Shown here: one piece after another, positions 7,107 to 58,668 of the stretch
Layout of the letters: each line of letters begins with the position of its first letter
Numbering within the stretch: position 1 is the stretch's first letter
Assembly (NCBI GenBank): GCA_001829155.1
Contig: MIAO01000116.1
Coordinates: forward strand, 4,182 to 68,181
Length of the DNA stretch: 64,000 nucleotides
Direction: 5' to 3'
Source of the DNA: Spirochaetes bacterium GWB1_36_13
Lineage (GTDB): Bacteria; Spirochaetota; GWB1-36-13
Made by a program: the position numbers and the translations under genes
Notes under the pieces: generated by a model
What the model was told of the DNA's origin: nothing
The model's input: only the letters and a program-made list of their open reading frames with translations
Databases searched by the model: none

Positions 7107-7160
7107 GAGGGATTCTCCTGATTTATTTTTCAATTAAGTTATGTTGAATTATACTAAGCT

Positions 7161-7228
7161 GAATATTAAATTCAAAATTGTCATTCCTGTTTTTGCGTGC
7201 AAAAGACCGGAATCTGTAATTTAATTAT
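7161..7228 (+). repeat. Intergenic repeat family A, copy 2 (truncated left half only)
   Basis: gaatattaaattcaaaattgtcattcctgtttttgcgtgcaaaagaccggaatctgtaattta aligns with 661-727. The second hairpin arm is missing. Confidence 0.7.
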
Positions 7229-7233
7229 TTTAT

Positions 7234-8106
7234 TTAAATAATCTGATATTTCTGTAAAACACTTTTTAAAATTTCACGGTGTCTGTCTTCCATAGGACAA
7301 AGAGGCAGTCTGACTTCAGGGGTAATCAGCCCCATCATCGCCAGGGTCTCCTTGACAGGAATCGGGTTGGTTTCAATAAAAAGCGTGTTGTTCAATTCTA
7401 AAAGTTCCAGATGGAGTTTCTGAGCTTTTAGGAAATCTCCTTTCAAAGCGGCTTCAGTCAATGCAGCCATTCTGTCGGGAACCACATTTGCGGAAACAGA
7501 AATAACCCCTTGTACTCCCATTGCCATCATCGGGAAGGTCAGTGCGTCATCCCCGGATAAAACAACAAAGTTTTTATCCGCATCCCTTAAAATTTCAGAG
7601 ACCTGTACCAGATTTCCGCTGGCTTCCTTGATCCCTGCAATATTTTTCAGGTTGCTCAAAGCAACGGTTGTGGCTGAGTTCATGTTGCTGGAAGTTCTTC
7701 CCGGCACATTGTAGAGAATCATAGGAATATCCACATTGTCGTTTAAATATTTATAATGCTCAAAGATTCCTTTTTGAGTGGGTTTATTGTAATAGGGAGA
7801 AATCAAAAGAGCTGCATCCACACCCATTTTTTTGGCTGATTGGGTGAGAGTAAGGGCTTCTTCGGTCGAGTTTGATCCGGTTCCCGCAATGACGGGGACT
7901 CTTTTTTTTACGGTTTCAACGGTAAAGCGGATCACTTCCTGATGTTCGGCATGGCTCAAAGTAGCCGATTCACCCGTGGTGCCGCAGGGAATAATTCCAT
8001 TTGTGCCGTTTTTAATTTGAAATTCAATAATTTTTTCAAAACTTTCGTAGTCCACCTTTCCGTTTTTAAAAGGAGTGACAATTGCAACTAATGAACCTGA
8101 AAACAT
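7234..8106 (-). CDS. dapA: 4-hydroxy-tetrahydrodipicolinate synthase
   Basis: GTTGESATL motif and the Schiff-base lysine context GIKEASG. Length is 290 aa. Confidence 0.95.
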   Translation of the reverse strand: MFSGSLVAIVTPFKNGKVDYESFEKIIEFQIKNGTNGIIPCGTTGESATLSHAEHQEVIRFTVETVKKRVPVIAGTGSNSTEEALTLTQSAKKMGVDAALLISPYYNKPTQKGIFEHYKYLNDNVDIPMILYNVPGRTSSNMNSATTVALSNLKNIAGIKEASGNLVQVSEILRDADKNFVVLSGDDALTFPMMAMGVQGVISVSANVVPDRMAALTEAALKGDFLKAQKLHLELLELNNTLFIETNPIPVKETLAMMGLITPEVRLPLCPMEDRHREILKSVLQKYQII

Positions 8107-14495: not shown

Positions 14496-14546
14496 GGTGT
14501 GCACACTTCGACTCCGCTCAGTGTCCGTTTGAGTCTGCTCAATGAC
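14496..14546 (+). repeat. Intergenic repeat family B, copy 2 (partial)
   Basis: ggtgtgcacacttcgactccgctcagtgtccgt...tgctcaatgac aligns with 58618-58668. Lies just 3' of rsgA. Confidence 0.65.
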
Positions 14547-14567
14547 AAAAATAAAATATTAAAGATT

Positions 14568-24961: not shown

Positions 24962-25091
24962 CGATTTTTCCTCCTGATAAATTAAAAAAAACTTATTTAA
25001 CAATATAGAAAAATAAAATTTAACAACTAATTGATCGATTAGTGCAATAAATTTTTATTTGATGTTTAGCACTGGCATTATATACTAATCT

Positions 25092-25196
25092 GTCATGCTT
25101 ACGAAGGCTGAAATCTATTGAAAGTAAGTGTTTTAAGTTATAGATTTCGGTATTTTTGCAAGCAAAAACCGGAATGACAATTTTGCATTTTATATT
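25092..25196 (-). repeat. Intergenic repeat family A, copy 3 (full length, diverged)
   Basis: gtcatgcttacgaaggctgaaatctattgaaagtaagtgttttaagt...tttgcaagcaaaaaccggaatgacaattttgcattttatatt. Confidence 0.8.
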
Positions 25197-25263
25197 GAGT
25201 TTTTATCAATAAAATTGAAAAAAAAGTGTAATTAAAGAATAATAAATGATTATTGTGTCGTGA

Positions 25264-25790: not shown

Positions 25791-26063
25791 AGAAAAATTC
25801 CTCCTTCTTTTAATAAAAACTTATAATTTGTTTCATTTAATAATGATAATTTTTTTAAAAAAAGTCAAGTTTAAAAAGAAAGTTTTAATTTTTTTTATTT
25901 CTTTAGCCGAATAATATTTTTTTTAAGTAAAAAAATGAGAGAGTATCTTTTATTTTAATAAAAGATATATTTTATGTTTTTGCGTAAGCTTCGATTATTT
26001 TTATATATATAATTTTTATATTTAAAAATTCTATTGGGATTTGGAAATTTAAAGACGAGGTTA

Positions 26064-28766
26064 ATGGCAATGGATGAAATGGAAGAATTAAAACAGGAAT
26101 TTTTAAGTGAAGCTTATGACCTTCTCAATTTGATGGAAGACGGAAGTCTGAAATTGGAGCAGAATCCTGAAGACAGCGAAGCCATTAATGGAATCTTCAG
26201 AGTTGCGCATACTTTAAAAGGCGGCGCCGCTTCTTTGGAGCTTTCCCGGATTGCCAATTTTACCCATGAACTGGAGAATCTATTCGATAAAGTCAGGGAT
26301 GGAATGATTCGAATTGATGATTCTATTATAGATATAATTTTAAAATCTCTGGATATTTTAAAAGCATTGGTAAATGCGGCTGCCAAAACAGTGGAAGCAG
26401 AGCCCGGCATTGAAGAGGACACTCTTAAAAAAATTATCAATGCTCAAAAAGACAATATTAAAGAAGTTCCGGCAGTTAAAAAACAAACGGTGAACACGAA
26501 AATGCAGGAGTCTGAAAAAGAACTTATTTTTCAGGATATCCTTTCAGATTATGAAAAAGAACAGATTCAAAAATTGATTTCCGAAAAGAAAAATATATAC
26601 ATTGTCTATATCCGCCTGAATCCTGATTATCCGATGAAAAGCGTCAGCGGGCTTCAAATCTACACAGTGATGAAAGACAGTGGAGAAATTATTTATTCTA
26701 ATCCCAGCATTGACAGTATTCTTGAAGAGGATTTTGTTCCTGAGATTTATTTTGTTTATGCATCGGGGCTGGATAAAGAAAGTCTTTATGATAAAGTTTA
26801 TACTTCTGATGTTACAAACAAGGTGCAGATTCAAAACTATACTCTCCCGAAAAATACAGAAGAGATGGACGATTCTTTTTTTTCAGAAAAGAAATCAGGA
26901 ATAAAAACGCTGACTCAGGAAGATAAAAATAACATCAACCGTTTTTTAAAAGAAGGCAAAAATGTTTTTAAAGTCAGTCTGGAAATAGAAAAAGACAACC
27001 CAATGAGAGAAGTAGATACTCTTTTGATGTATAATACAATCGAATCTTTGGGAGAGATTGTCGTGTCTGTCCCTGAAAAAGAGGAGTTGAAACAAGACAT
27101 TTTTTATCCTTTTCTGGAAATGATTGTTTCAACGCAAATGGATAAAGAAAAAATTAAAGAAAAATGCACGATTACCGGCACAACTAAAAATGTGAAAATA
27201 GCGGTCTTTAAATCGAAAAATGAAGAAGAGGCTGTCCCTGAAAAGAAACCGCCTTTAGAAATAAAAAAAGTTCAGATCCCTGAAAATCAGGAAGATGAAG
27301 CAGAGTCTTTCCAGAATGAGAAAAAGCAGGGTCTTTTAAATGTTTCTTCTCAGTCAGCAGTTCATAAGTCTTTTTTAAAGGTTGAAAGCAGCCGCGTGGA
27401 TATCTTGATGAATTTGGTCAGCGAGCTGGTGATCAGCAAAGCGGGACTGATTGAAACTGCCCAGCAGATTTTATACATGATTGAAAACTTAAGAAACTCA
27501 GGGTTAAATACAAAAAAAATTTTTGAAGGGCTTAATTTTGAAGCGCTGGCTCAGAATGAAGATGATAAAATGAAAAATATTTATCAGTTTTTTAACTCTG
27601 TTACAAGGTCTTCGTGGAATGAGCTGGATAGTTTTGAAAATATTATTAATATTATTTCACGGGTCATCAATGAACTTCAAGAAAGCGTTATGAAGATCCG
27701 AATGATTCCGATCAGCAGTATTTTTAACCGGTTCCCGAGAATTGTGCGGGATCTGGCTAAAAATTTAAATAAAAAAGTGACTCTGGATCTTTTTGGCGAA
27801 GAAACAGAACTGGATAAGTCGGTTATTGAAGAACTTTTGGATCCTATGGTGCATATGATCAGAAATTCAATTGATCATGGAATCGAGATCCCTGATTTAA
27901 GAAAACAAAGGGGAAAATCCGAGGAAGGTAAAATTACTTTAAGCGCCAGTCATGAAGGAAGTATGATCAAGATACAGGTTCAAGACGACGGAAACGGACT
28001 GGATACGGAACGAATTAAAGCAAAAGCAATTGAAAAAGGGCTGATTCCTGAGAATAAAGATTTAACAAAAGAAGAAATTTTAAATCTTATTTTTCAGCCG
28101 GGATTTTCTACAGCATTCGTTATTACAGAAGTTTCAGGGCGGGGTGTGGGAATGGATGTCGTGAAAAGAAAAATCGACAACCTCTCCGGTTCAATTTTTG
28201 TGGAAACAGAAAAACATAAAGGGACAAAGTTTATTATCAAGATTCCTTTGACTCTGGCTATTATTCAGGCGCTGATTGTAGAGATCAACAGTTTTTCTTA
28301 TTCGATCCCGATCAACAGTATTGTGGAGACATTATCTATTACCGAGGATCAGATAGAAAACTTTGAAAACAACGCTGTGATTCGTCTGAGAGATGAAATT
28401 ATTACTGTGATTAATATTAAAGATATTTTCAATTTTAAGGAAAAACAAAACTGGGAAAGTGAAAATCATGAACCCGAGAAAAAGAAACCTTCTCAAAATC
28501 AATCGGAGAATTTATCTGAAGAAGAAAATTCAAATGAAAGGTATGTGGTTATTGTTGAACTTTCAAATAAAAAAGCCGGACTTTTAGTGGATACGGTTAT
28601 TTCCGAGCAGGATATTGTTATTAAGCCGCTCCATAAAAAATATGCGATGACTAAGGGAATCAGCGGAGCCACAATACTGGGAGACGGACGGATCAGTTTG
28701 ATTATTGATATTTCTCAATTGATCGATATGTATGTGAAAAAAGAAGAATATATCCTGATTAAATAA
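26064..28766 (+). CDS. cheA: Chemotaxis histidine kinase CheA (long form, about 900 aa)
   Basis: Hpt with HTLKGGAAS. Kinase N-box HMIRNSIDHGIE, G1 DDGNGLD, G2 GRGVGMDVV. C-terminal CheW-like P5 domain. ATG at 26064 follows a gagg RBS. Confidence 0.93.
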   Translation: MAMDEMEELKQEFLSEAYDLLNLMEDGSLKLEQNPEDSEAINGIFRVAHTLKGGAASLELSRIANFTHELENLFDKVRDGMIRIDDSIIDIILKSLDILKALVNAAAKTVEAEPGIEEDTLKKIINAQKDNIKEVPAVKKQTVNTKMQESEKELIFQDILSDYEKEQIQKLISEKKNIYIVYIRLNPDYPMKSVSGLQIYTVMKDSGEIIYSNPSIDSILEEDFVPEIYFVYASGLDKESLYDKVYTSDVTNKVQIQNYTLPKNTEEMDDSFFSEKKSGIKTLTQEDKNNINRFLKEGKNVFKVSLEIEKDNPMREVDTLLMYNTIESLGEIVVSVPEKEELKQDIFYPFLEMIVSTQMDKEKIKEKCTITGTTKNVKIAVFKSKNEEEAVPEKKPPLEIKKVQIPENQEDEAESFQNEKKQGLLNVSSQSAVHKSFLKVESSRVDILMNLVSELVISKAGLIETAQQILYMIENLRNSGLNTKKIFEGLNFEALAQNEDDKMKNIYQFFNSVTRSSWNELDSFENIINIISRVINELQESVMKIRMIPISSIFNRFPRIVRDLAKNLNKKVTLDLFGEETELDKSVIEELLDPMVHMIRNSIDHGIEIPDLRKQRGKSEEGKITLSASHEGSMIKIQVQDDGNGLDTERIKAKAIEKGLIPENKDLTKEEILNLIFQPGFSTAFVITEVSGRGVGMDVVKRKIDNLSGSIFVETEKHKGTKFIIKIPLTLAIIQALIVEINSFSYSIPINSIVETLSITEDQIENFENNAVIRLRDEIITVINIKDIFNFKEKQNWESENHEPEKKKPSQNQSENLSEEENSNERYVVIVELSNKKAGLLVDTVISEQDIVIKPLHKKYAMTKGISGATILGDGRISLIIDISQLIDMYVKKEEYILIK

Positions 28767-28781
28767 AACGAGGACTGTAGT

Positions 28782-30038
28782 ATGCAGCGTCAGATATTGA
28801 TTATTAAGTTGGACGGGGATTTATACGGAATTGATGTCCGCCTGATTAAAGAAGTAATTAAAAAATATACTCTCCGGGAAATACCTGATGCCCCCAATTT
28901 TATTGAAGGTGTCATCAGTTTACGGGATGATATTGTTCCTCTGATTAAAATTAAAAGAATCTTGAATATGCCTATGTTTGACCTCTATAAGCATAAAAAA
29001 GTGATTATTCTTTATTTTGGAGAAGGAGTTAAAATAGGGATTGTGGTTGACGATGTATTGGGTATTCATTATTATGATGATCAGGAGATTCAGCCTGTCG
29101 ATACGGTTTCCCGTTCCGAAGTCATTAATTATGTCCTTGGAGTAATTAAAAATCAGAATAATCAGAAAATAGCTATTTTAGATGTTTTATCCATGTTTTT
29201 TACGAACAAAGGGGATTTTCTTTATAAAAATTTTCTCAAAAACGGAGATTCTAAAAGAGAAATAAAAATTTTGAAAAAAGATTATTTTTTCCTGAAAGAA
29301 AAAATTGAAAAGAACAAATTTCCATTTAATGCCATCACTCAAAATGAAATTATCAAATATGTCTCAAAAATTTCTACCCTGAAAGGGAAAAAAATAGAAG
29401 AAATTTTAAAAGATCCAAAGTTTTTTGAAACCAGTCATTTTGATCTGGAGCAAACCCGGACCGCATTTTTTGAAAATATTTCTGATATGTACATGATTAC
29501 GGAAGCGGTTGAAAATTTTATTAAAAGAAAAAAAGATATCCGTGTATGGCTTCTTGGTAATGCGACAGGAGAAGATGCTTATTCGATCGCCATGATTTTT
29601 CATTCTTTTGAAATTCCTTTTAAAAACATCCGGATTATCAGTTCAAATGATTCGCTTGAAAAGCTGGTTCAAGCCAGAAAAGGCGTTTATAAAAGAGAAG
29701 CTGTAGAGAAAATTCCTCAAGATCTGGTGGAAAATTATTTTTTACCAAAAGATAAAAAAGAATATTATATTATAAAAGATGAAATCAAAAAAAGTGTTGT
29801 TTTTGATTTTTTTAAGCCAAATTCAAAGTTTCAGCCTTATAATATAGATTTAATTTATGCTCCGAATTACCTTTCTAAAAATACAGAAAAAAGCGATCTT
29901 TTATTGAAAAATTTTTATAAAGCGCTGAATCCTGACGGAATTTTAGCCCTCGGGCTTTTTGAAAATATAGAAGGTTTTGCTAAAAAATTAAAAAAGTATT
30001 ATATTAAAAATAGATTAGTCTTTATTAAGGAGTCCTAG
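28782..30038 (+). CDS. CheW - CheR-like fusion protein
   Basis: N-terminal CheW domain (LIIKLDGDLYGIDVRLIKEV...PNFIEGVISLRDDIVPLI). C-terminal CheR-type methyltransferase-like fold (VWLLGNATGEDAYSIAMIF). Confidence 0.85.
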   Translation: MQRQILIIKLDGDLYGIDVRLIKEVIKKYTLREIPDAPNFIEGVISLRDDIVPLIKIKRILNMPMFDLYKHKKVIILYFGEGVKIGIVVDDVLGIHYYDDQEIQPVDTVSRSEVINYVLGVIKNQNNQKIAILDVLSMFFTNKGDFLYKNFLKNGDSKREIKILKKDYFFLKEKIEKNKFPFNAITQNEIIKYVSKISTLKGKKIEEILKDPKFFETSHFDLEQTRTAFFENISDMYMITEAVENFIKRKKDIRVWLLGNATGEDAYSIAMIFHSFEIPFKNIRIISSNDSLEKLVQARKGVYKREAVEKIPQDLVENYFLPKDKKEYYIIKDEIKKSVVFDFFKPNSKFQPYNIDLIYAPNYLSKNTEKSDLLLKNFYKALNPDGILALGLFENIEGFAKKLKKYYIKNRLVFIKES

Positions 30039-30500
30039 ATGAGAATAGATTTTATAACTCCTTTTCTGGAAGCAACAGAAGAGATTATTAATGAAGTTTT
30101 AGATATCCAGCCTCAGCGGGGAGAAATGGATTTAAAGGCAAATGAAACGATTCCTGATGTGGGGGTTCTGGTGGGGATCACCGGGCAGGCTGTGGGAAGA
30201 ATGCTGATTATTCTGGATAAAACACTGGCTGAAAAACTGGTGGAAATTATGAACGGAGAAGTCTATAAACTGGAAGAAGATATGGCTCAGGCAACGATTG
30301 GGGAAGTCGGTAATATGATCATGGGCAGGGCGATTACAAAGCTTTATGAGCTCGGGTTTCATTTTGAGATCACACCGCCTTCTGTGATTGTGGGAAGATC
30401 TGTTCGAATTTCTACTTTAGGAATTGAAACTTTAGCCGTTCCTTATACTTTTCCTTATGGTTCTATGGAGATAAATATTTCAATAAAAGAGAATGTGTAG
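30039..30500 (+). CDS. cheX: CheY-P phosphatase CheX
   Basis: Size is 153 aa. CheC/CheX active-site helix ATIGEVGNMIMGRA (E-x2-N). Confidence 0.85.
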   Translation: MRIDFITPFLEATEEIINEVLDIQPQRGEMDLKANETIPDVGVLVGITGQAVGRMLIILDKTLAEKLVEIMNGEVYKLEEDMAQATIGEVGNMIMGRAITKLYELGFHFEITPPSVIVGRSVRISTLGIETLAVPYTFPYGSMEINISIKENV

Positions 30501-30551
30501 TATTTAATTTTATAATTAAACTTTGTTAAATTTTGAATAGGGGGATATTTT

Positions 30552-30983
30552 ATGAATAGGGTGATCGAAGAACATATCAATCAGAAACGGCCGGAAGGTG
30601 TCAAAGTGGATGGGACGCCTTATAATATTTTAATAGTTGATGATTCTATGTTTATTGTCAAACAGCTGACGCAAATATTAGGTTCTGAAGCTTATAATAT
30701 TATTGATACCGCAACAGACGGCGAAGAAGGAATCCGAAAATATAAAGAGCTTTATCCAAAAGTGGATCTGGTAACTCTGGATATTACGATGCCGAAAAAA
30801 GACGGTCTTCAGGTTTTGAGAGAAGTGATTGAGTTTGACAAAGAAGCAAAAATTATTATGATCAGCGCGATTGGAAAGCAAGGTTTTGTGAAGGAAGCGC
30901 TGCTTCTGGGAGCAAAGAACTATATTGTTAAACCTTTGAATCGTGAGAAAGTTTTGGAAAGAATAAAAAAAGTTCTGTATTAA
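30552..30983 (+). CDS. cheY: Chemotaxis response regulator CheY
   Basis: Receiver residues ILIVDDS, LVTLDITMP, MISA and VKP are all present. Confidence 0.9.
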   Translation: MNRVIEEHINQKRPEGVKVDGTPYNILIVDDSMFIVKQLTQILGSEAYNIIDTATDGEEGIRKYKELYPKVDLVTLDITMPKKDGLQVLREVIEFDKEAKIIMISAIGKQGFVKEALLLGAKNYIVKPLNREKVLERIKKVLY

Positions 30984-30985
30984 GA

Positions 30986-31351
30986 ATGAAAAAAGTTACA
31001 ATAGTAGAAGACAATGCAGAAATTAACCATTTGATTAAAAGGATTTTAATTTCTGAGAATTATCAAGTAGAACAATATTTCAACGGTCTGGATGTTCTGG
31101 ATTCTTTAGATGAAATTTATCAAAGCGATATTATATTGCTGGATATTATGCTTCCGGGAACAGACGGCTTTCAGATCTATGAAGAATTAAAGAAAAATTA
31201 TCCCTCTTCTTTAAATAAAGTTGTTTTTCTCACAGCAATGTCAGATGATAAAGCAATTCAATTTTTTCAAAAAAATTATTGTCAATATATTATCAAACCT
31301 TTTGATCCTTTCAATCTTTTAAACATTCTGAAAAAAATGAATATTACTTAA
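30986..31351 (+). CDS. Stand-alone receiver-domain response regulator (second CheY-like protein)
   Basis: VEDN, LLDIMLPG, FLTA and IKPF receiver residues. 2-nt gap after cheY. Confidence 0.85.
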   Translation: MKKVTIVEDNAEINHLIKRILISENYQVEQYFNGLDVLDSLDEIYQSDIILLDIMLPGTDGFQIYEELKKNYPSSLNKVVFLTAMSDDKAIQFFQKNYCQYIIKPFDPFNLLNILKKMNIT

Positions 31352-32584: not shown

Positions 32585-32634
32585 TTAATTTTAAAATTCT
32601 TTTTATAAATCAGTTTTTTGAGACCGCAATAGAA

Positions 32635-32892
32635 TCATAAAGCCCTTTTTTTTAAACTGTTTAAAAAAGCCTCTGTATCGATTTTTTCACTTTCCAAACC
32701 TTCTTTTATTGCTATTGCAAGTCCGTAATCTTCATGGTATTCGTCGAGGTATTTTTTTACTGCGATCCTGATCACTTCTATATAAGCCGATAATCCCAAA
32801 TCCTGTGAAATGTTTTTTAGTTCATTAATCCATTCTTCTGGAAATCGGATCGGAACTGAAACTGTTTTTTTAGTGTTTAATGGGCGTGCCAT
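32635..32892 (-). CDS. Ribbon-helix-helix (CopG-like) antitoxin
   Basis: 85 aa. The N-terminal strand TVSVPIRF followed by two helices gives an RHH pattern. Lies 10 nt downstream of the toxin gene. Confidence 0.65.
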   Translation of the reverse strand: MARPLNTKKTVSVPIRFPEEWINELKNISQDLGLSAYIEVIRIAVKKYLDEYHEDYGLAIAIKEGLESEKIDTEAFLNSLKKRAL

Positions 32893-32902
32893 AAGTCCTC
32901 CT

Positions 32903-33175
32903 CTATGGGAAATATTTATAAATATCCTTTCTATGAAGAAAGCGGACTAAAACAACTCTGTTTTCTTCTGAAAAATATTGAATCCCCAATCTGTAATAAT
33001 TTAATTTTATTCTATAAAAATCTTTAAACCCTTCCATTTTTTTTATCTTTTTAAGACTGGATAAGTTTAGAGAAGTTTTTAATTCATCAATAATTCTGAT
33101 AATATCCTGTAAAACTTCTTTATCATTGATTTTATCAACATCTTTTTCAAATTTTTTAAGAATTTCTACAGTCAT
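32903..33175 (-). CDS. RelE/ParE-superfamily type II toxin (toxin-first, HigB-like gene order)
   Basis: FYRIKLNYYRLGIQYFSEENRVVLVRFLHRKDIYKYFP is a classic RelE/ParE C-terminal signature. ATG at 33175 has a ggaga RBS. The track start at 33229 is an extension. Confidence 0.8.
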   Translation of the reverse strand: MTVEILKKFEKDVDKINDKEVLQDIIRIIDELKTSLNLSSLKKIKKMEGFKDFYRIKLNYYRLGIQYFSEENRVVLVRFLHRKDIYKYFP

Positions 33176-33189
33176 GTTTTCTCCATTTC

Positions 33190-33218
33190 TGTATATTTTA
33201 AATATATAATAATATACA
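33190..33218. promoter_or_regulatory. AT-rich nested palindrome immediately upstream of the toxin RBS (candidate TA operator)
   Basis: tgtatatt...aatataca encloses the perfect dyad tatattt-t-aaatata. Confidence 0.4.
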
Positions 33219-33356
33219 GTGATAGGCAAATAATAAAAATCTGCTTTGTATAGTAAAACAAATTTATTAAATAATCAGAAAAATATGAGATATTTTGTCA
33301 ATAACCTGAAAAGGTGTTGTAAAGGTTTTTGTTTGGTCTGACTCGAATAATTCCTC

Positions 33357-33499
33357 TTGAAGATTTTGTCTGCGGTTTCAAATCCAAACCCCCTAACCCC
33401 CTTATCCTTAAGTCTTTAAGGACAAGGGGGGAGTCCTCCGTGATTTCATCCGTGAAATCAAGTCGGACGGGGAAATCCTGCATCGTGCAGGATTAAAGA
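33357..33499 (+). repeat. Intergenic repeat family C, copy 2 (long form with extra nested hairpins)
   Basis: Same ends as 505-593. Adds an insert containing tccg-tgatttca-tccg-tgaaatca-agt-cgga and aatcctgca-tcg-tgcaggatt. Confidence 0.75.
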
Positions 33500-33763
33500 G
33501 GAAAATTTAAATTTTAAAAAGAGATTTTGTTTCTGAAAGGTTTGTGTGTTATTTTTAATAAAATGAGGTATGAAAAAAAATCAACCTGCCGGGGAAGTGA
33601 TCAAGCAGGGTTTTTTATTGCGTAAAATATTCCAAATGGTATGGATAGATGCAATGGGGCTGTTATCCTAAAAACAGCATGTTTTACGCATTGCATATAA
33701 TGGAGTCATGCGCCATTAATTTGAGCAATTTTTTCTAGTGACAAAATATTTTAAAGAGAAACA

Positions 33764-34744
33764 ATGAGTAAAGGGAATTGGTCATTTATCCATGAATGGA
33801 CAATTTATGAATATATGATTCATAGATCAGAAGAAAACAATTTAAGATTGAAATGCATTTTAAGTGATTCAAAAATCATTAGAAAAGATTTATGGAAGAA
33901 AGTGGAAATTCTAAATCCAATATATAGTACTGATTTTCCTGATATAAAAGGTTTGAAATTTGAAAAAGAAAAAGATTTTAGACCTGCAGAAATTAAATTT
34001 ACAACATCGTTATTTTCATATCATATCGATTCCAAATATAAAGATAAATTTCAAGACTTTAAAAAGCAAAATGGTATTATTCTGGTTTTAAGTCATGATC
34101 AACTTCCGAAAAATTATGATGAAATAAAGGATTTAGATATTTATGAAATTGATAGATCAGATTTTACAGCATTTTGTCGCGAAAATTTTGATAGATTATT
34201 GAATAGACAGATAAAACAGCATGCTGAAACAAAAGTTTGGGTGATGTACGAAGGTCCAAATTTCAATGATTCAACAGAAAATATTAAATCCGCTCGAAAA
34301 TCAAACATTTGGTGTCCAACAGAAAATTTAACAAGTTTTGATTTAGCAATTGGGGATAGAATTTTATTCTTGAAAACAAAAGGTTCTTCATCACAAGATG
34401 TGCAAAATAATTTTGAAAAAGTTAAAGACAAATGGATTCTTACTGAATTAGTAATAACTGAAGTGAGATCAAAAATCAGAAGTCGTTTAGAATATCTTCA
34501 ATTAAATAATCTTAATCCAGATGCTCAATTATGGGTAACTGATCCGTTCGAAAATGGAATGTGGCGTTGGGATCGTGTCTTTGAATTTAAAATAATAAAA
34601 ACATATCAATCAGATATCATTATATCAAATTTTATTAATAAATCGAAAGGGTTTTTTGAAGCAATTCGTGAAGTTTACTGTTTTCGAAAATCAAGAGAAT
34701 TGAAATTGAATGAGTACAGAGATTTTCTTGAAAATTTACTTTAA
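33764..34744 (+). CDS. Orphan two-domain protein: N-terminal PD-(D/E)xK nuclease-like domain plus C-terminal PUA/EVE/ASCH-like beta-barrel (candidate modification-dependent restriction enzyme)
   Basis: FPD60-x15-E76-I-K78 followed by the hydrophobic strand GIILVLSHD. C-terminal pattern VWVMYEG / NIWCPTEN / IGDRILFLKTKG / WILTELVITEV / WDRVFEFKIIK. Very AT-rich. Confidence 0.5.
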   Translation: MSKGNWSFIHEWTIYEYMIHRSEENNLRLKCILSDSKIIRKDLWKKVEILNPIYSTDFPDIKGLKFEKEKDFRPAEIKFTTSLFSYHIDSKYKDKFQDFKKQNGIILVLSHDQLPKNYDEIKDLDIYEIDRSDFTAFCRENFDRLLNRQIKQHAETKVWVMYEGPNFNDSTENIKSARKSNIWCPTENLTSFDLAIGDRILFLKTKGSSSQDVQNNFEKVKDKWILTELVITEVRSKIRSRLEYLQLNNLNPDAQLWVTDPFENGMWRWDRVFEFKIIKTYQSDIIISNFINKSKGFFEAIREVYCFRKSRELKLNEYRDFLENLL

Positions 34745-34893
34745 AATTTTGTATAATTTAATTATTGTTACTATTCGGTATTCTGACCCTCTAAAAGAGT
34801 GTGTTCAATAAACTGTGTGTGGGTTGTTTTTTTATTTAAAATCTACTCTCAAAAATTATACAAAAGTAGATGTTAAACGCAAGTTAATCAATA

Positions 34894-34970
34894 ATTCAGG
34901 CTGTCGATTATTGTTTTAATTAACTCGGACTTCGGCTCCGCTCAGTGGTCGTGCAGCTTCGATTAATGAC
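34894..34970 (+). repeat. Intergenic repeat family B, copy 3 (lacks left hairpin arm)
   Basis: attcaggctgtcgattattgttttaattaactcggac|ttcggctccgctcagtg...cttcgattaatgac aligns with 58569-58668 apart from a roughly 23-nt deletion. Confidence 0.8.
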
Positions 34971-35261
34971 ACCATTGCTTGAACAACTAAATAGAAAATT
35001 TAAGCAATTCAGATAATCATCATTCTGAATTCCTCGTCTGAAATAAAATTTGACAATACTTTTAATCCCAGATCAGGGAAAAATCAAATTAAATCATGCA
35101 TCCGCCCAGATCAAAATCAAAAGAACCGTCTTTTTCTTCTACTCGAAATAATAATTTTGATTCTTTTTAGAAATCTGTTTTTTTTTTTAAGATTTTTCAC
35201 TAAATTTTCTTTTTAAACTTTGATTTTGAAGCTAAAAAAACGCAAAAAAGGATTCTTATTG

Positions 35262-39815: not shown

Positions 39816-39859
39816 ATATACTAAACAAAATATAAATTGTCCGTTTTTATATTTACTTT

Positions 39860-39962
39860 GTCATTTCCGCGAAGGCTAGAATCTATTGACAATAAGTGTT
39901 TTAAGTAACAGATTCCGGTCTTTTGCAAGCAAAAACCGGAATGACAGGCGGTCATTTTATAA
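39860..39962 (-). repeat. Intergenic repeat family A, copy 4 (full length)
   Basis: gtcatttccgcgaaggctagaatctattgacaataagtgttttaagtaacagattccggtcttttgcaagcaaaaaccggaatgac. The right hairpin is identical to the reverse complement of copy 1. Confidence 0.85.
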
Positions 39963-40259
39963 TTAGATTACTATAGAACTCGTGTATCAGTAAAAAAAGT
40001 GAAAGAAAATATTTTTTTTGTTTTTTCATCTCAATAAGTTTAAATTTATTGGAGAAAACACGGAAAATTAAAGTTTTCAAAATTATTTTTTGTTCAATTT
40101 CGTTCAGTTTTTTAAAGCTTTCAGGATGATTTCAGGCTTGCTTGAAAGAAAGTGGGTATAAATCATATTTTTGTTTTGTTTTTTTATTTTGAAAGTATTA
40201 AATTTAAATAACTATTTTCTGCAAATTTTATTTTAAATAAATATAAAAGGATTGTGCGA

Positions 40260-58550: not shown

Positions 58551-58568
58551 CAACTCATTTAATTTATT

Positions 58569-58668
58569 ATTCAGGCTGTCGATTATTGTTTAAATTAACT
58601 CGGACACCGAGCGGAGTCGAGGTGTCACTTCGGCTCCGCTCAGTGACCGTACTGCTCTGATTAATAAC
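58569..58668 (+). repeat. Intergenic repeat family B, copy 4 (longest copy)
   Basis: attcaggctgtcgattattgtttaaattaactcggacaccgagcggagtcgaggtgtcacttcggctccgctcagtgaccgtactgctctgattaataac. Confidence 0.85.

Follow-up and report, generated by a model that had tools for sequence, protein, structure and literature searches.

How a solitary gene that encodes a nuclease-like and a base-reader-like domain in one polypeptide chain might serve its bacterial host, and whether its product would attack DNA bearing a modified base or DNA lacking one, is the question raised by the locus described here. The gene lies in a stretch of 64,000 nucleotides from Spirochaetes bacterium GWB1_36_13 (contig MIAO01000116.1, positions 4,182 to 68,181), termed the window in the following, and encodes a protein of 326 amino acids (aa; Table 1). 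A preliminary description, made from the sequence of the window, had presented the protein as an orphan PD-(D/E)xK nuclease fused to a PUA/EVE-like reader domain and thus as a candidate for a modification-dependent, Type IV-like restriction enzyme. Our analysis supports the reader-plus-nuclease architecture; nuclease activity, base flipping, ligand and polarity are what we infer from it. We consider it probable that the protein is a reader-gated defence nuclease and, with distinctly less certainty, tentatively favor a modification-dependent, Type IV-like mode of action for the window copy.

A putative PD-(D/E)xK nuclease domain

The reading frame and all motifs quoted in the preliminary description were found where it had placed them: E11, FPD (residues 58-60), EIK (76-78) and GIILVLSHD (104-112) in the N-terminal half, and VWVMYEG (158-164), NIWCPTEN (181-188), IGDRILFLKTKG (196-207), WILTELVITEV (224-234) and WDRVFEFKIIK (269-279) in the C-terminal half. 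A full-length AlphaFold2 model built from the family alignment gave a mean predicted local distance difference test score (pLDDT) of 88 and a predicted template modelling score (pTM) of 0.54, the latter as expected for a protein of two domains. Five of the six segments that had been named as strands are predicted as beta strand in this model, with NIWCPTEN being strand in part. A 96-aa open reading frame (ORF) on the opposite strand within the gene (34141..34431) found no support and was taken as noise.

Modelled alone (pLDDT 87, pTM 0.82), the N-terminal domain is predicted to run through helix 11-23, strands 28-34, 44-50, 61-66 and 73-80, helix 90-101 and strand 105-110, an alpha-beta-beta-beta-alpha-beta topology that would correspond to the PD-(D/E)xK layout with one extra hairpin strand. 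In this model, E11 opens the first helix, D60 directly precedes strand 61-66, and E76-x-K78 lies within strand 73-80. Among 37 homologues of 38-68% identity, 31 of the 326 columns are invariant, including those of F58, P59, D60, E76, K78 and H111, with E11 being conserved to at least 90% and D112 nearly invariant; the chance that three picked residues all fall into invariant columns is about 9e-4, or about 2e-4 when E11 is counted as well. The comparison could be extended to a small sister family of five clusters (P0127, P0130-P0133; 17-19% identity) that has both domains. Invariant across core and sister family are D60, E76, F84, H87, G104, D112, F134, W159 and W183, and the position of K78 is taken by E in the sister family ('EVEW'), such that ExE replaces ExK. 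BamHI has the same D...ExE variant. As judged from these alignments, the conservation pattern is that expected of a metal-binding active site; H111-D112 may have a catalytic role as well, with D112 probably located at the active site.

The PD-(D/E)xK arrangement that the preliminary description had read from the motifs thus gained from their invariance and from the predicted topology, but not from fold or profile searches. The N-terminal domain alone found no significant Foldseek match in PDB or BFVD, and none of the nuclease models of Pfam, NCBIfam, PADLOC and PHROGs matches the window protein, two results that count against the assignment. The best non-significant fold matches reached a probability of 0.44 in PDB (NucS/EndoMS) and of 0.38 in BFVD, and the lists of weak matches were enriched in restriction-type nucleases (Bax1, AvaII, BamHI, AgeI, PaqCI, RecB-family, Mrr). 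As no fold match was significant, the assignment rests on motif and topology, on the strength of which we regard a PD-(D/E)xK nuclease as the likely identity of this domain, with metal-dependent cleavage of phosphodiester bonds as its predicted activity.

An EVE/YTH-like reader domain

The top 28 Foldseek matches in PDB are all EVE or YTH structures, 21 of them with E<0.005, and no other kind of structure gave a significant match. They comprise the EVE structures 2p5d (MJECL36; E 9.8e-6), 1wmm/2hd9 (PH1033), 2eve and 2g2x, and the YTH readers of N6-methyladenine (m6A) YTHDF2, Mmi1 and YTHDC1. The first 22 matches have Foldseek probabilities of 0.99-1.0 and template modelling scores (normalized to the target) of 0.50-0.66; the probability is 0.98 for 2eve and goes down to 0.69 for lower-ranked matches to Mmi1 and YTHDC1. 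No SRA-domain structure was among the 50 Foldseek matches listed. The PUA/EVE-like reader of the preliminary description was therefore recovered in a narrower form than its list of EVE, ASCH and SRA folds. The Pfam models EVE (PF01878) and YTH (PF04146) gave no match, neither for the window protein at E<=10 nor for the 37 family members at E<=1. The predicted structure supports assignment of the C-terminal half to the PUA-like readers, and among these to the EVE/YTH branch. Residues W159, W183, D198, F202, W224, W257, F273 and F275 are conserved to superfamily depth, and the aromatic ones W159, W183, W224, W257, F273 and F275 are candidates for a base-binding pocket.

A rare family of two-domain proteins

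A search of 5.8 billion protein clusters returned 64 relatives (homologue clusters), nearly all of them full length (~326-397 aa), every named one 'hypothetical' and none with a Pfam domain. Relatives are found in 7 of 185,579 species genomes, belonging to Bacteroidota, Clostridia, Chloroflexia and Bathyarchaeota, and one further copy, from Thermoplasmata, came from the protein search. Neither half turned up as a protein of its own in the family searches, including that of 1.84 billion representatives; the exhaustive hidden Markov model search of the latter yielded no new architecture, but the same family, fragments and the small sister family. For the sister family, there was no Pfam link to EVE or any nuclease family.

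Comparison of the window protein with PDB sequences gave an empty result, as did scans with the models of Pfam, NCBIfam, PADLOC and PHROGs. Matches of the family profile to PDB entries such as xylanases were dismissed as noise, as were scattered single-member matches in the Pfam scan of all 37 members (E<=1). Two candidates were likewise set aside, namely P0124, a spurious RCC1-repeat match, and P0125, which had been considered as a nuclease domain standing alone but is a fragment from a contig of 598 bp, with unannotated relatives. The sister-family loci (L045 7001-8086, L046 5886-6899) lie in mobile-element contexts with DUF932, NOV_C, CcdA, NYN and DUF3427 genes, and the same contexts hold a large N6_N4 methyltransferase adjoining a UvrD/PDDEXK helicase-nuclease.

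Proposed mode of action of the window copy

According to the reading that we prefer, the gene would have been gained horizontally on a low-GC islet of about 2.6 kb, along with a ParE/RelB toxin-antitoxin pair. Its product would carry an N-terminal metal-dependent PD-(D/E)xK nuclease with an active site made up of E11, D60, E76-x-K78 and probably D112. The C-terminal EVE/YTH-like module may flip one base out of the helix into the aromatic pocket and, by analogy with solved EVE and YTH readers, sense the chemical state of this base; binding by the reader would then license the nuclease to cut nearby. In the case of the window enzyme, the DNA to be cut would be that bearing a modified base which the host lacks.

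We favor Type IV-like polarity for the window copy because it is alone, intact and carried without change on contigs of three or more metagenome samples. The identical protein is encoded on six contigs, with the same neighboring genes at the three loci shown, and it keeps every invariant residue. Searches of the 64-kb window by tblastn with all partner proteins of relatives (see below) and by a scan for methyltransferase motif IV revealed neither a methyltransferase nor a cassette remnant, so that the orphan status noted in the preliminary description was borne out for the window. The clade to which the window copy belongs (60-68% identity) is essentially free of methyltransferases. Its one exception (L041; 67% identity, closest on the tree) has its nuclease gene knocked out at codon 6. 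As to precedent, characterized PUA-family nuclease fusions, VcaM4I/TspA15I and others, are all modification-dependent (PMC6765204, PMC7897488), and EVE-PD(D/E)XK proteins are a recognized predicted class of Type IV enzymes, with the EVE domain at either end (PMC7641849).

Concerning the ligand, a phage-type hypermodification appears more likely than plain m6A, N4-methylcytosine (m4C) or 5-methylcytosine (5mC), because intact relatives live beside methyltransferases of the m6A, m4C and 5mC classes: intact copies were seen within 10 kb of HsdM/COG1743-type m6A methyltransferases, of methyltransferases with the motif TSPPY (probable m4C) and of C5 (5mC) methyltransferases. It is thus unlikely that the enzyme depends broadly on any of the common methyl marks. 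The C5 enzymes are a tandem pair of C5-cytosine methyltransferase genes (L015 3805-5972) located 4-6 kb upstream of an intact family member, which has an adjacent N6_N4 methyltransferase of its own and an IS605 OrfB gene downstream; the two C5 methyltransferases look like a separate system.

Gene neighborhoods and methyltransferase linkage of relatives

We compared 26 independent gene contexts, in which ORFs were called, clustered all against all and scanned with Pfam and PADLOC. A DNA amino-methyltransferase is linked to the gene in 13 of the 26 contexts, a lower bound in view of several 'orphan' contexts being short contigs, and a truncated upstream partner suggests a fourteenth (L022). The linked enzymes belong to four families; the contexts are described below as groups (a) to (d). 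In a neighbor-joining tree the type of methyltransferase follows the nuclease clades, with methyltransferase-adjacent relatives occurring in three of them.

Group (a) consists of tight, partly overlapping and translationally coupled operons. In L001/L009 and P0029, a gene for an HTH_3 controller-like protein is followed by genes for an N6_N4 methyltransferase (~425 aa), a paraMORC protein (740-755 aa, HATPase_c_3 plus HATPase_c, with a weak HEF_HK match), a 413-aa protein and the nuclease. Although placed in the 'RR-like' slot of such cassettes, this last-named 413-aa protein has no Response_reg_2 match. L010/L019 share the first three genes, followed by a 1.4-kb gap where the 413-aa gene would be. 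A second version of the operon (L008 and L012) includes Z1/ResIII and a 158-aa protein; in L008, paraMORC is fused to a FokI-like cleavage domain. Operons of this kind comprise five or six genes (L001 3023-9017; L008 640-7755; P0029 contig).

In group (b), a small N6_N4 methyltransferase gene (250-330 aa) lies 42-97 bp from the nuclease gene, either co-directional (L013, L015) or convergent (L031, L033-35); in L018, a small N6_N4 methyltransferase is found 2.8 kb away. An HTH_3 controller upstream of clade III nucleases was considered and rejected, as the 96-aa ORF of L033, inspected by eye, resembles an excisionase-type helix-turn-helix protein instead. Group (c) has methyltransferases of the COG1743/DUF1156 type, together with an SNF2 helicase and a NOV_C nuclease in L024; the same methyltransferase type is present in L039. 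Group (d) is represented by L041, where a D12-class Dam-like methyltransferase gene lies in divergent orientation 310 bp away. Motif IV reads TSPPY in groups (a) and (b) and DPPY in groups (c) and (d). By the textbook rule, TSPPY indicates m4C and DPPY m6A formation, the TSPPY rule having exceptions.

No methyltransferase was seen in the other 12 contexts, of which at least six are robust and hold an intact gene (window, L002, L007, L023, L025, L037). These solitary intact copies, at least six of them independent, imply that cells can carry the nuclease with no methyltransferase gene next to it.

The surroundings of the gene are for the most part defence or mobile DNA, which speaks for the proposed role in defence; a few are housekeeping contexts (L007, L011). 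Neighbors related to defence include HNH_2 plus RE_EcoO109I, GmrSD_N, an AAA_15/DUF4276 pair, a SIR2_2 cluster, Type I restriction-modification (R-M) systems and PLD-type nucleases; mobile elements are represented by IS605 and IS1595 transposases and a plasmid ParM-like gene. On the P0029 contig, a GmrSD_N gene and an AAA_15/AAA_21 plus DUF4276 pair stand directly beside the cassette and form a dense defence island. We take this pair to be PARIS-like.

Four copies of the gene are degraded: L014 is frameshifted, L012 has one stop codon, L043 is truncated, and L041 (7690-8001), the closest relative with known context, has TGA in place of TGG at the invariant W6 codon. A genetic code with TGA read as tryptophan was rejected for L041, the neighboring genes being long ORFs under the standard bacterial code. 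The L041 copy adjoins a four-gene SIR2_2 cluster whose other three proteins match no family.

Degraded copies raise the possibility that no working restriction enzyme is present here, but the silent remnant of an R-M cassette, a Vsr/MutH-like repair nickase, or an RNA-directed nuclease acting on modified RNA. A repair role would suit the best (non-significant) fold match of the N-terminal domain, the mismatch nuclease NucS/EndoMS, and an RNA target would recall the original description of EVE and YTH domains as RNA-binding modules (PMC6765204). Nonetheless, we consider this explanation improbable. The window copy has all invariant residues and recurs in identical form on contigs of three or more metagenome samples, the orientation relative to methyltransferases varies, in contrast to Vsr, the partners are DNA methyltransferases and DNA-directed ATPases or helicases, and the contexts are defence or mobile DNA rather than repair or RNA metabolism.

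Polarity: cutting modified or unmodified DNA

Several observations weigh against modification dependence, which the preliminary description had proposed: the solitary window copy fits the proposal, whereas the linkage of the family to amino-methyltransferases in half of the contexts does not. Among PUA-nuclease Type IV enzymes, fewer than 6% are encoded near a methyltransferase (PMC6765204), a frequency so far exceeded by the present 13 of 26 contexts that modification dependence is weakened. The same direction is indicated by the correspondence between methyltransferase type and nuclease clade and by the two-gene pair, which occurs in four lineages with no other nuclease candidate identified beside it and is classical Type II R-M anatomy. 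Also to be counted here are the extreme rarity and patchy distribution of the family, which look more like those of a Type II enzyme than of typical Type IV families. A cognate methyltransferase may furthermore be encoded elsewhere in the host genome, the methyltransferase scan having covered the 64-kb window. Finally, the pocket residues are candidates chosen by their conservation in the alignment.

These points would be accommodated by a conventional, methylation-blocked R-M endonuclease, whose EVE/YTH-like domain would probe the unmethylated target base such that cutting is prevented once the partner has methylated this base at N6 (adenine) or N4 (cytosine); the window copy would then have lost its linked methyltransferase and rely on an unlinked one. 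We regard this as somewhat unlikely for the window copy, while acknowledging what speaks for it. The small N6_N4 methyltransferases at 42-97 bp (L013, L015, L031, L033-35), the translationally coupled operons of HTH_3 protein, methyltransferase, paraMORC, 413-aa protein and nuclease, with their second type that includes Z1, and the operons with COG1743-type methyltransferases would all be expected of R-M systems, as would the parallel between methyltransferase type and nuclease clade; a rare and phylogenetically patchy occurrence is also what Type II enzymes typically show. In L041, the Dam-like methyltransferase beside a nuclease with a nonsense codon at W6 reflects the usual order of decay of an R-M pair. 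LlaJI in addition illustrates that Type IV-like machinery can be turned to reading unmodified DNA (PMC12707154).

The conventional scheme nevertheless meets difficulties in those intact copies, namely that of the window and at least five more, that have no methyltransferase nearby. A lone classical R-M endonuclease is normally lethal without its methyltransferase. The pocket candidates, moreover, are invariant irrespective of whether the partner is m4C- or m6A-like, which is hard to square with flipping of each target base, and one nuclease family would be partnered by four unrelated methyltransferase families. To our knowledge, no characterized Type II enzyme has an EVE/YTH domain.

Partner promiscuity, invariant pocket candidates and solitary copies could be brought under one scheme if the pocket bound any N-methylated exocyclic amine (m6A/m4C) on host DNA and thereby restrained the fused nuclease. 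Only unmarked incoming DNA would be cut, the partner could be freely swapped among the four amino-methyltransferase families, and solitary copies would rely on the general methylome of the host. It would be in line with such self-mark reading that all directly linked methyltransferases are amino-methyltransferases, C5 enzymes having been seen only in L015 at a distance of 4-6 kb. If true, this would be a restriction enzyme needing no sequence-matched methyltransferase. However, the sample of contexts is small and the sequence gives no sign of inhibition rather than activation; an inhibitory sensor of self from the PUA family of readers would, as far as we know, also be without precedent. We therefore rate this scheme as very doubtful.

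Where EVE genes accompany R-M systems, according to a proposal by Bell et al., the mark set by the methyltransferase is one to which the EVE domain is blind, and such a system would cover unmodified and modified invaders alike (PMC7641849). This scheme suits contexts of groups (a) and (c), but suits group (b) poorly.

Genomic islet and further features of the window

The gene is AT-rich, as had been noted in the preliminary description, with a GC content of 0.27 compared with 0.364 for the whole window and 0.35-0.40 for the flanking major facilitator superfamily (MFS) and channel genes. The toxin-antitoxin pair reported next door was likewise found; its members are a ParE toxin and a weak RelB-like antitoxin, the gene for the latter following immediately downstream of that for the toxin, as would suit a pair of this kind. 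A 24-nt direct repeat encloses exactly the low-GC stretch 32590-35183 (GC 0.293 versus 0.364), about 2.6 kb in size, which comprises the toxin-antitoxin pair and the nuclease gene. By a rough estimate, about 0.004 repeat matches this good would be expected by chance in the 6.5 kb searched, and the repeat is probably an insertion scar.

Table 1. Positions of the gene, its predicted domains and key codons, and of neighboring features in the window.
Feature	Position	Strand	Basis and remarks
Nuclease-reader gene, complete	33764..34744	+	Two-domain protein of 326 aa, ATG start; ORF list, full-length homologues, AlphaFold model
N-terminal domain, aa 1-154, putative PD-(D/E)xK nuclease	33764..34225	+	Predicted topology and invariant motif
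Codon E11, acidic residue at start of helix 1	33794..33796	+	>=90% conserved in core and core-plus-sister alignments
Codon D60, D of FPD	33941..33943	+	Invariant in core family and sister family
Codons E76-I77-K78, ExK	33989..33997	+	E76 invariant at both depths; K78 invariant in core, E in sister family
Codons H111-D112, after strand 105-110	34094..34099	+	H111 invariant in core; D112 invariant in core plus sister
EVE/YTH-like PUA-superfamily reader domain, ~aa 155-290 (predicted)	34226..34633	+	Foldseek versus PDB, EVE/YTH structures
C-terminal helical tail, aa 291-326	34634..34741	+	Predicted helices 295-307 and 315-325; S310, E312 and Y318 nearly invariant
ParE-family toxin gene	32903..33229	-	Pfam PF05016 ParE_toxin, E 8e-7
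Putative antitoxin gene, RelB-like	32635..32892	-	Pfam E 0.0017, weaker than curated cut-off
24-nt direct repeat, left copy	32596..32619		12 nt past stop of MFS gene; 22/24 identity with right copy
24-nt direct repeat, right copy	35160..35183		37 nt ahead of start of channel gene
Dispersed intergenic repeat, downstream of gene	34884..34970		Copies at 58559-58605, 58627-58668 and 14504-14567

The dispersed repeats said to bracket the gene were confirmed on one side: a dispersed repeat is present downstream (Table 1), but the upstream AT-rich intergenic region contains a different, GC-rich and hairpin-rich element (33380-33495), of which about 36 nt resemble positions 534-567. An Rfam scan of the islet, including this element, returned nothing, and promoter and terminator scans of the islet gave nothing above chance.

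A different intergenic repeat, about 115 nt long and containing hairpins, is dispersed over the window at 649-763, 7150-7240, 25086-25202 and 39854-39969, two copies per orientation with 78-94% identity; in appearance, it is like repetitive extragenic palindromes or miniature inverted-repeat transposable elements. Upstream of the islet lies a chemotaxis cluster (26034-31351), whose translations, on visual inspection, look like those of a kinase related to CheA, a CheW-CheR fusion, a phosphatase of CheX type and two receiver proteins. The gene rpsG is split into two ORFs in L004 (8708-9144), a metagenome contig of the same organism, and intact in L005 (7298-7771), another contig, and in the window; the split is probably an assembly frameshift.

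Comparison with known systems

Enzymes that cut according to the epigenetic state of DNA come mainly from fusions of a reader with a nuclease, which serve as tools for mapping 5mC, 5-hydroxymethylcytosine (5hmC) and m6A and, in nature, as a layer of defence against phages with modified DNA. Should the present family prove to be an ordinary Type IV enzyme, it would add one more specificity to the toolbox. Its polarity would tell whether the restriction enzyme of a conventional R-M system may employ an EVE/YTH reader, and could give a first functional handle on the uncharacterized paraMORC 'two-component-like' R-M cassettes.

Enzymes of the PvuRts1I/AbaSI and MspJI types combine an SRA-like base-flipping reader with a PD-(D/E)xK-type nuclease, which is N-terminal in PvuRts1I. 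The window protein shares this design logic and, with PvuRts1I, the order of domains. The likeness to PvuRts1I drawn in the preliminary description does not extend to the fold: the readers of those enzymes are of the SRA type, a fold missing from the structural matches listed, whereas that of the window protein is EVE/YTH-like, and there is no detectable sequence relation.

The EVE-HNH enzymes VcaM4I and TspA15I represent the same fusion of an EVE-type reader to a nuclease, with experimentally established dependence on 5mC/5hmC (PMC6765204, PMC7897488). Their reader is N-terminal and their nuclease of the HNH type, whereas the window family has an N-terminal nuclease of the putative PD-(D/E)xK type; the proximity to methyltransferases differs as well (<6% versus 13 of 26 contexts). 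Similar in design are the predicted EVE-PD(D/E)XK Type IV enzymes (Bell, Wolf and Koonin 2020, PMC7641849), which combine a PD-(D/E)xK nuclease and an EVE-type reader in a single chain and likewise occur in defence-related contexts; we found no characterized example in the literature. The window family differs from them in matching no Pfam EVE or nuclease model (37 members, E<=1) and in having half of its contexts linked to a methyltransferase.

As to YTH-like domains, Tg-delta-185, a YTH-McrB fusion from Thermococcus gammatolerans (cited in PMC12707154), illustrates that a prokaryotic domain of this type can read m6A in DNA for the purpose of restriction. In that system, the reader is attached to a GTPase translocase, with the nuclease McrC as a separate partner protein, whereas the window protein has its putative nuclease in the same chain and no NTPase. 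DUF3427-nuclease fusions of the McaZI group also join a putative sensor to a nuclease and, unlike PUA fusions, often reside in defence islands beside DNA methyltransferases (PMC6765204). Their sensor is DUF3427, with no sequence or fold relation shown to the window protein.

Relatives of the window protein (L001, L010, L012, P0029) fill the nuclease slot of 'HK-like/RR-like' paraMORC R-M cassettes (Iyer et al. 2008, PMC2292703; Bellieny-Rabelo et al. 2021, PMC8011034). Published cassettes mostly contain C5 methyltransferases together with HNH_2, Vsr or other nucleases. The cassettes of the relatives differ in their N6_N4 type of methyltransferase and in the lack of a Response_reg_2 match in the 413-aa protein; paraMORC partners are present in L001, L008, L010, L012 and P0029, with none in the 64-kb window by tblastn.

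The architecture of the window protein is thus of a known kind. The family itself is unannotated by Pfam, NCBIfam, PADLOC and PHROGs, in agreement with the earlier suspicion that it might be undescribed, and is set apart from characterized members by its systematic, clade-specific coupling to amino-methyltransferases and paraMORC cassettes.

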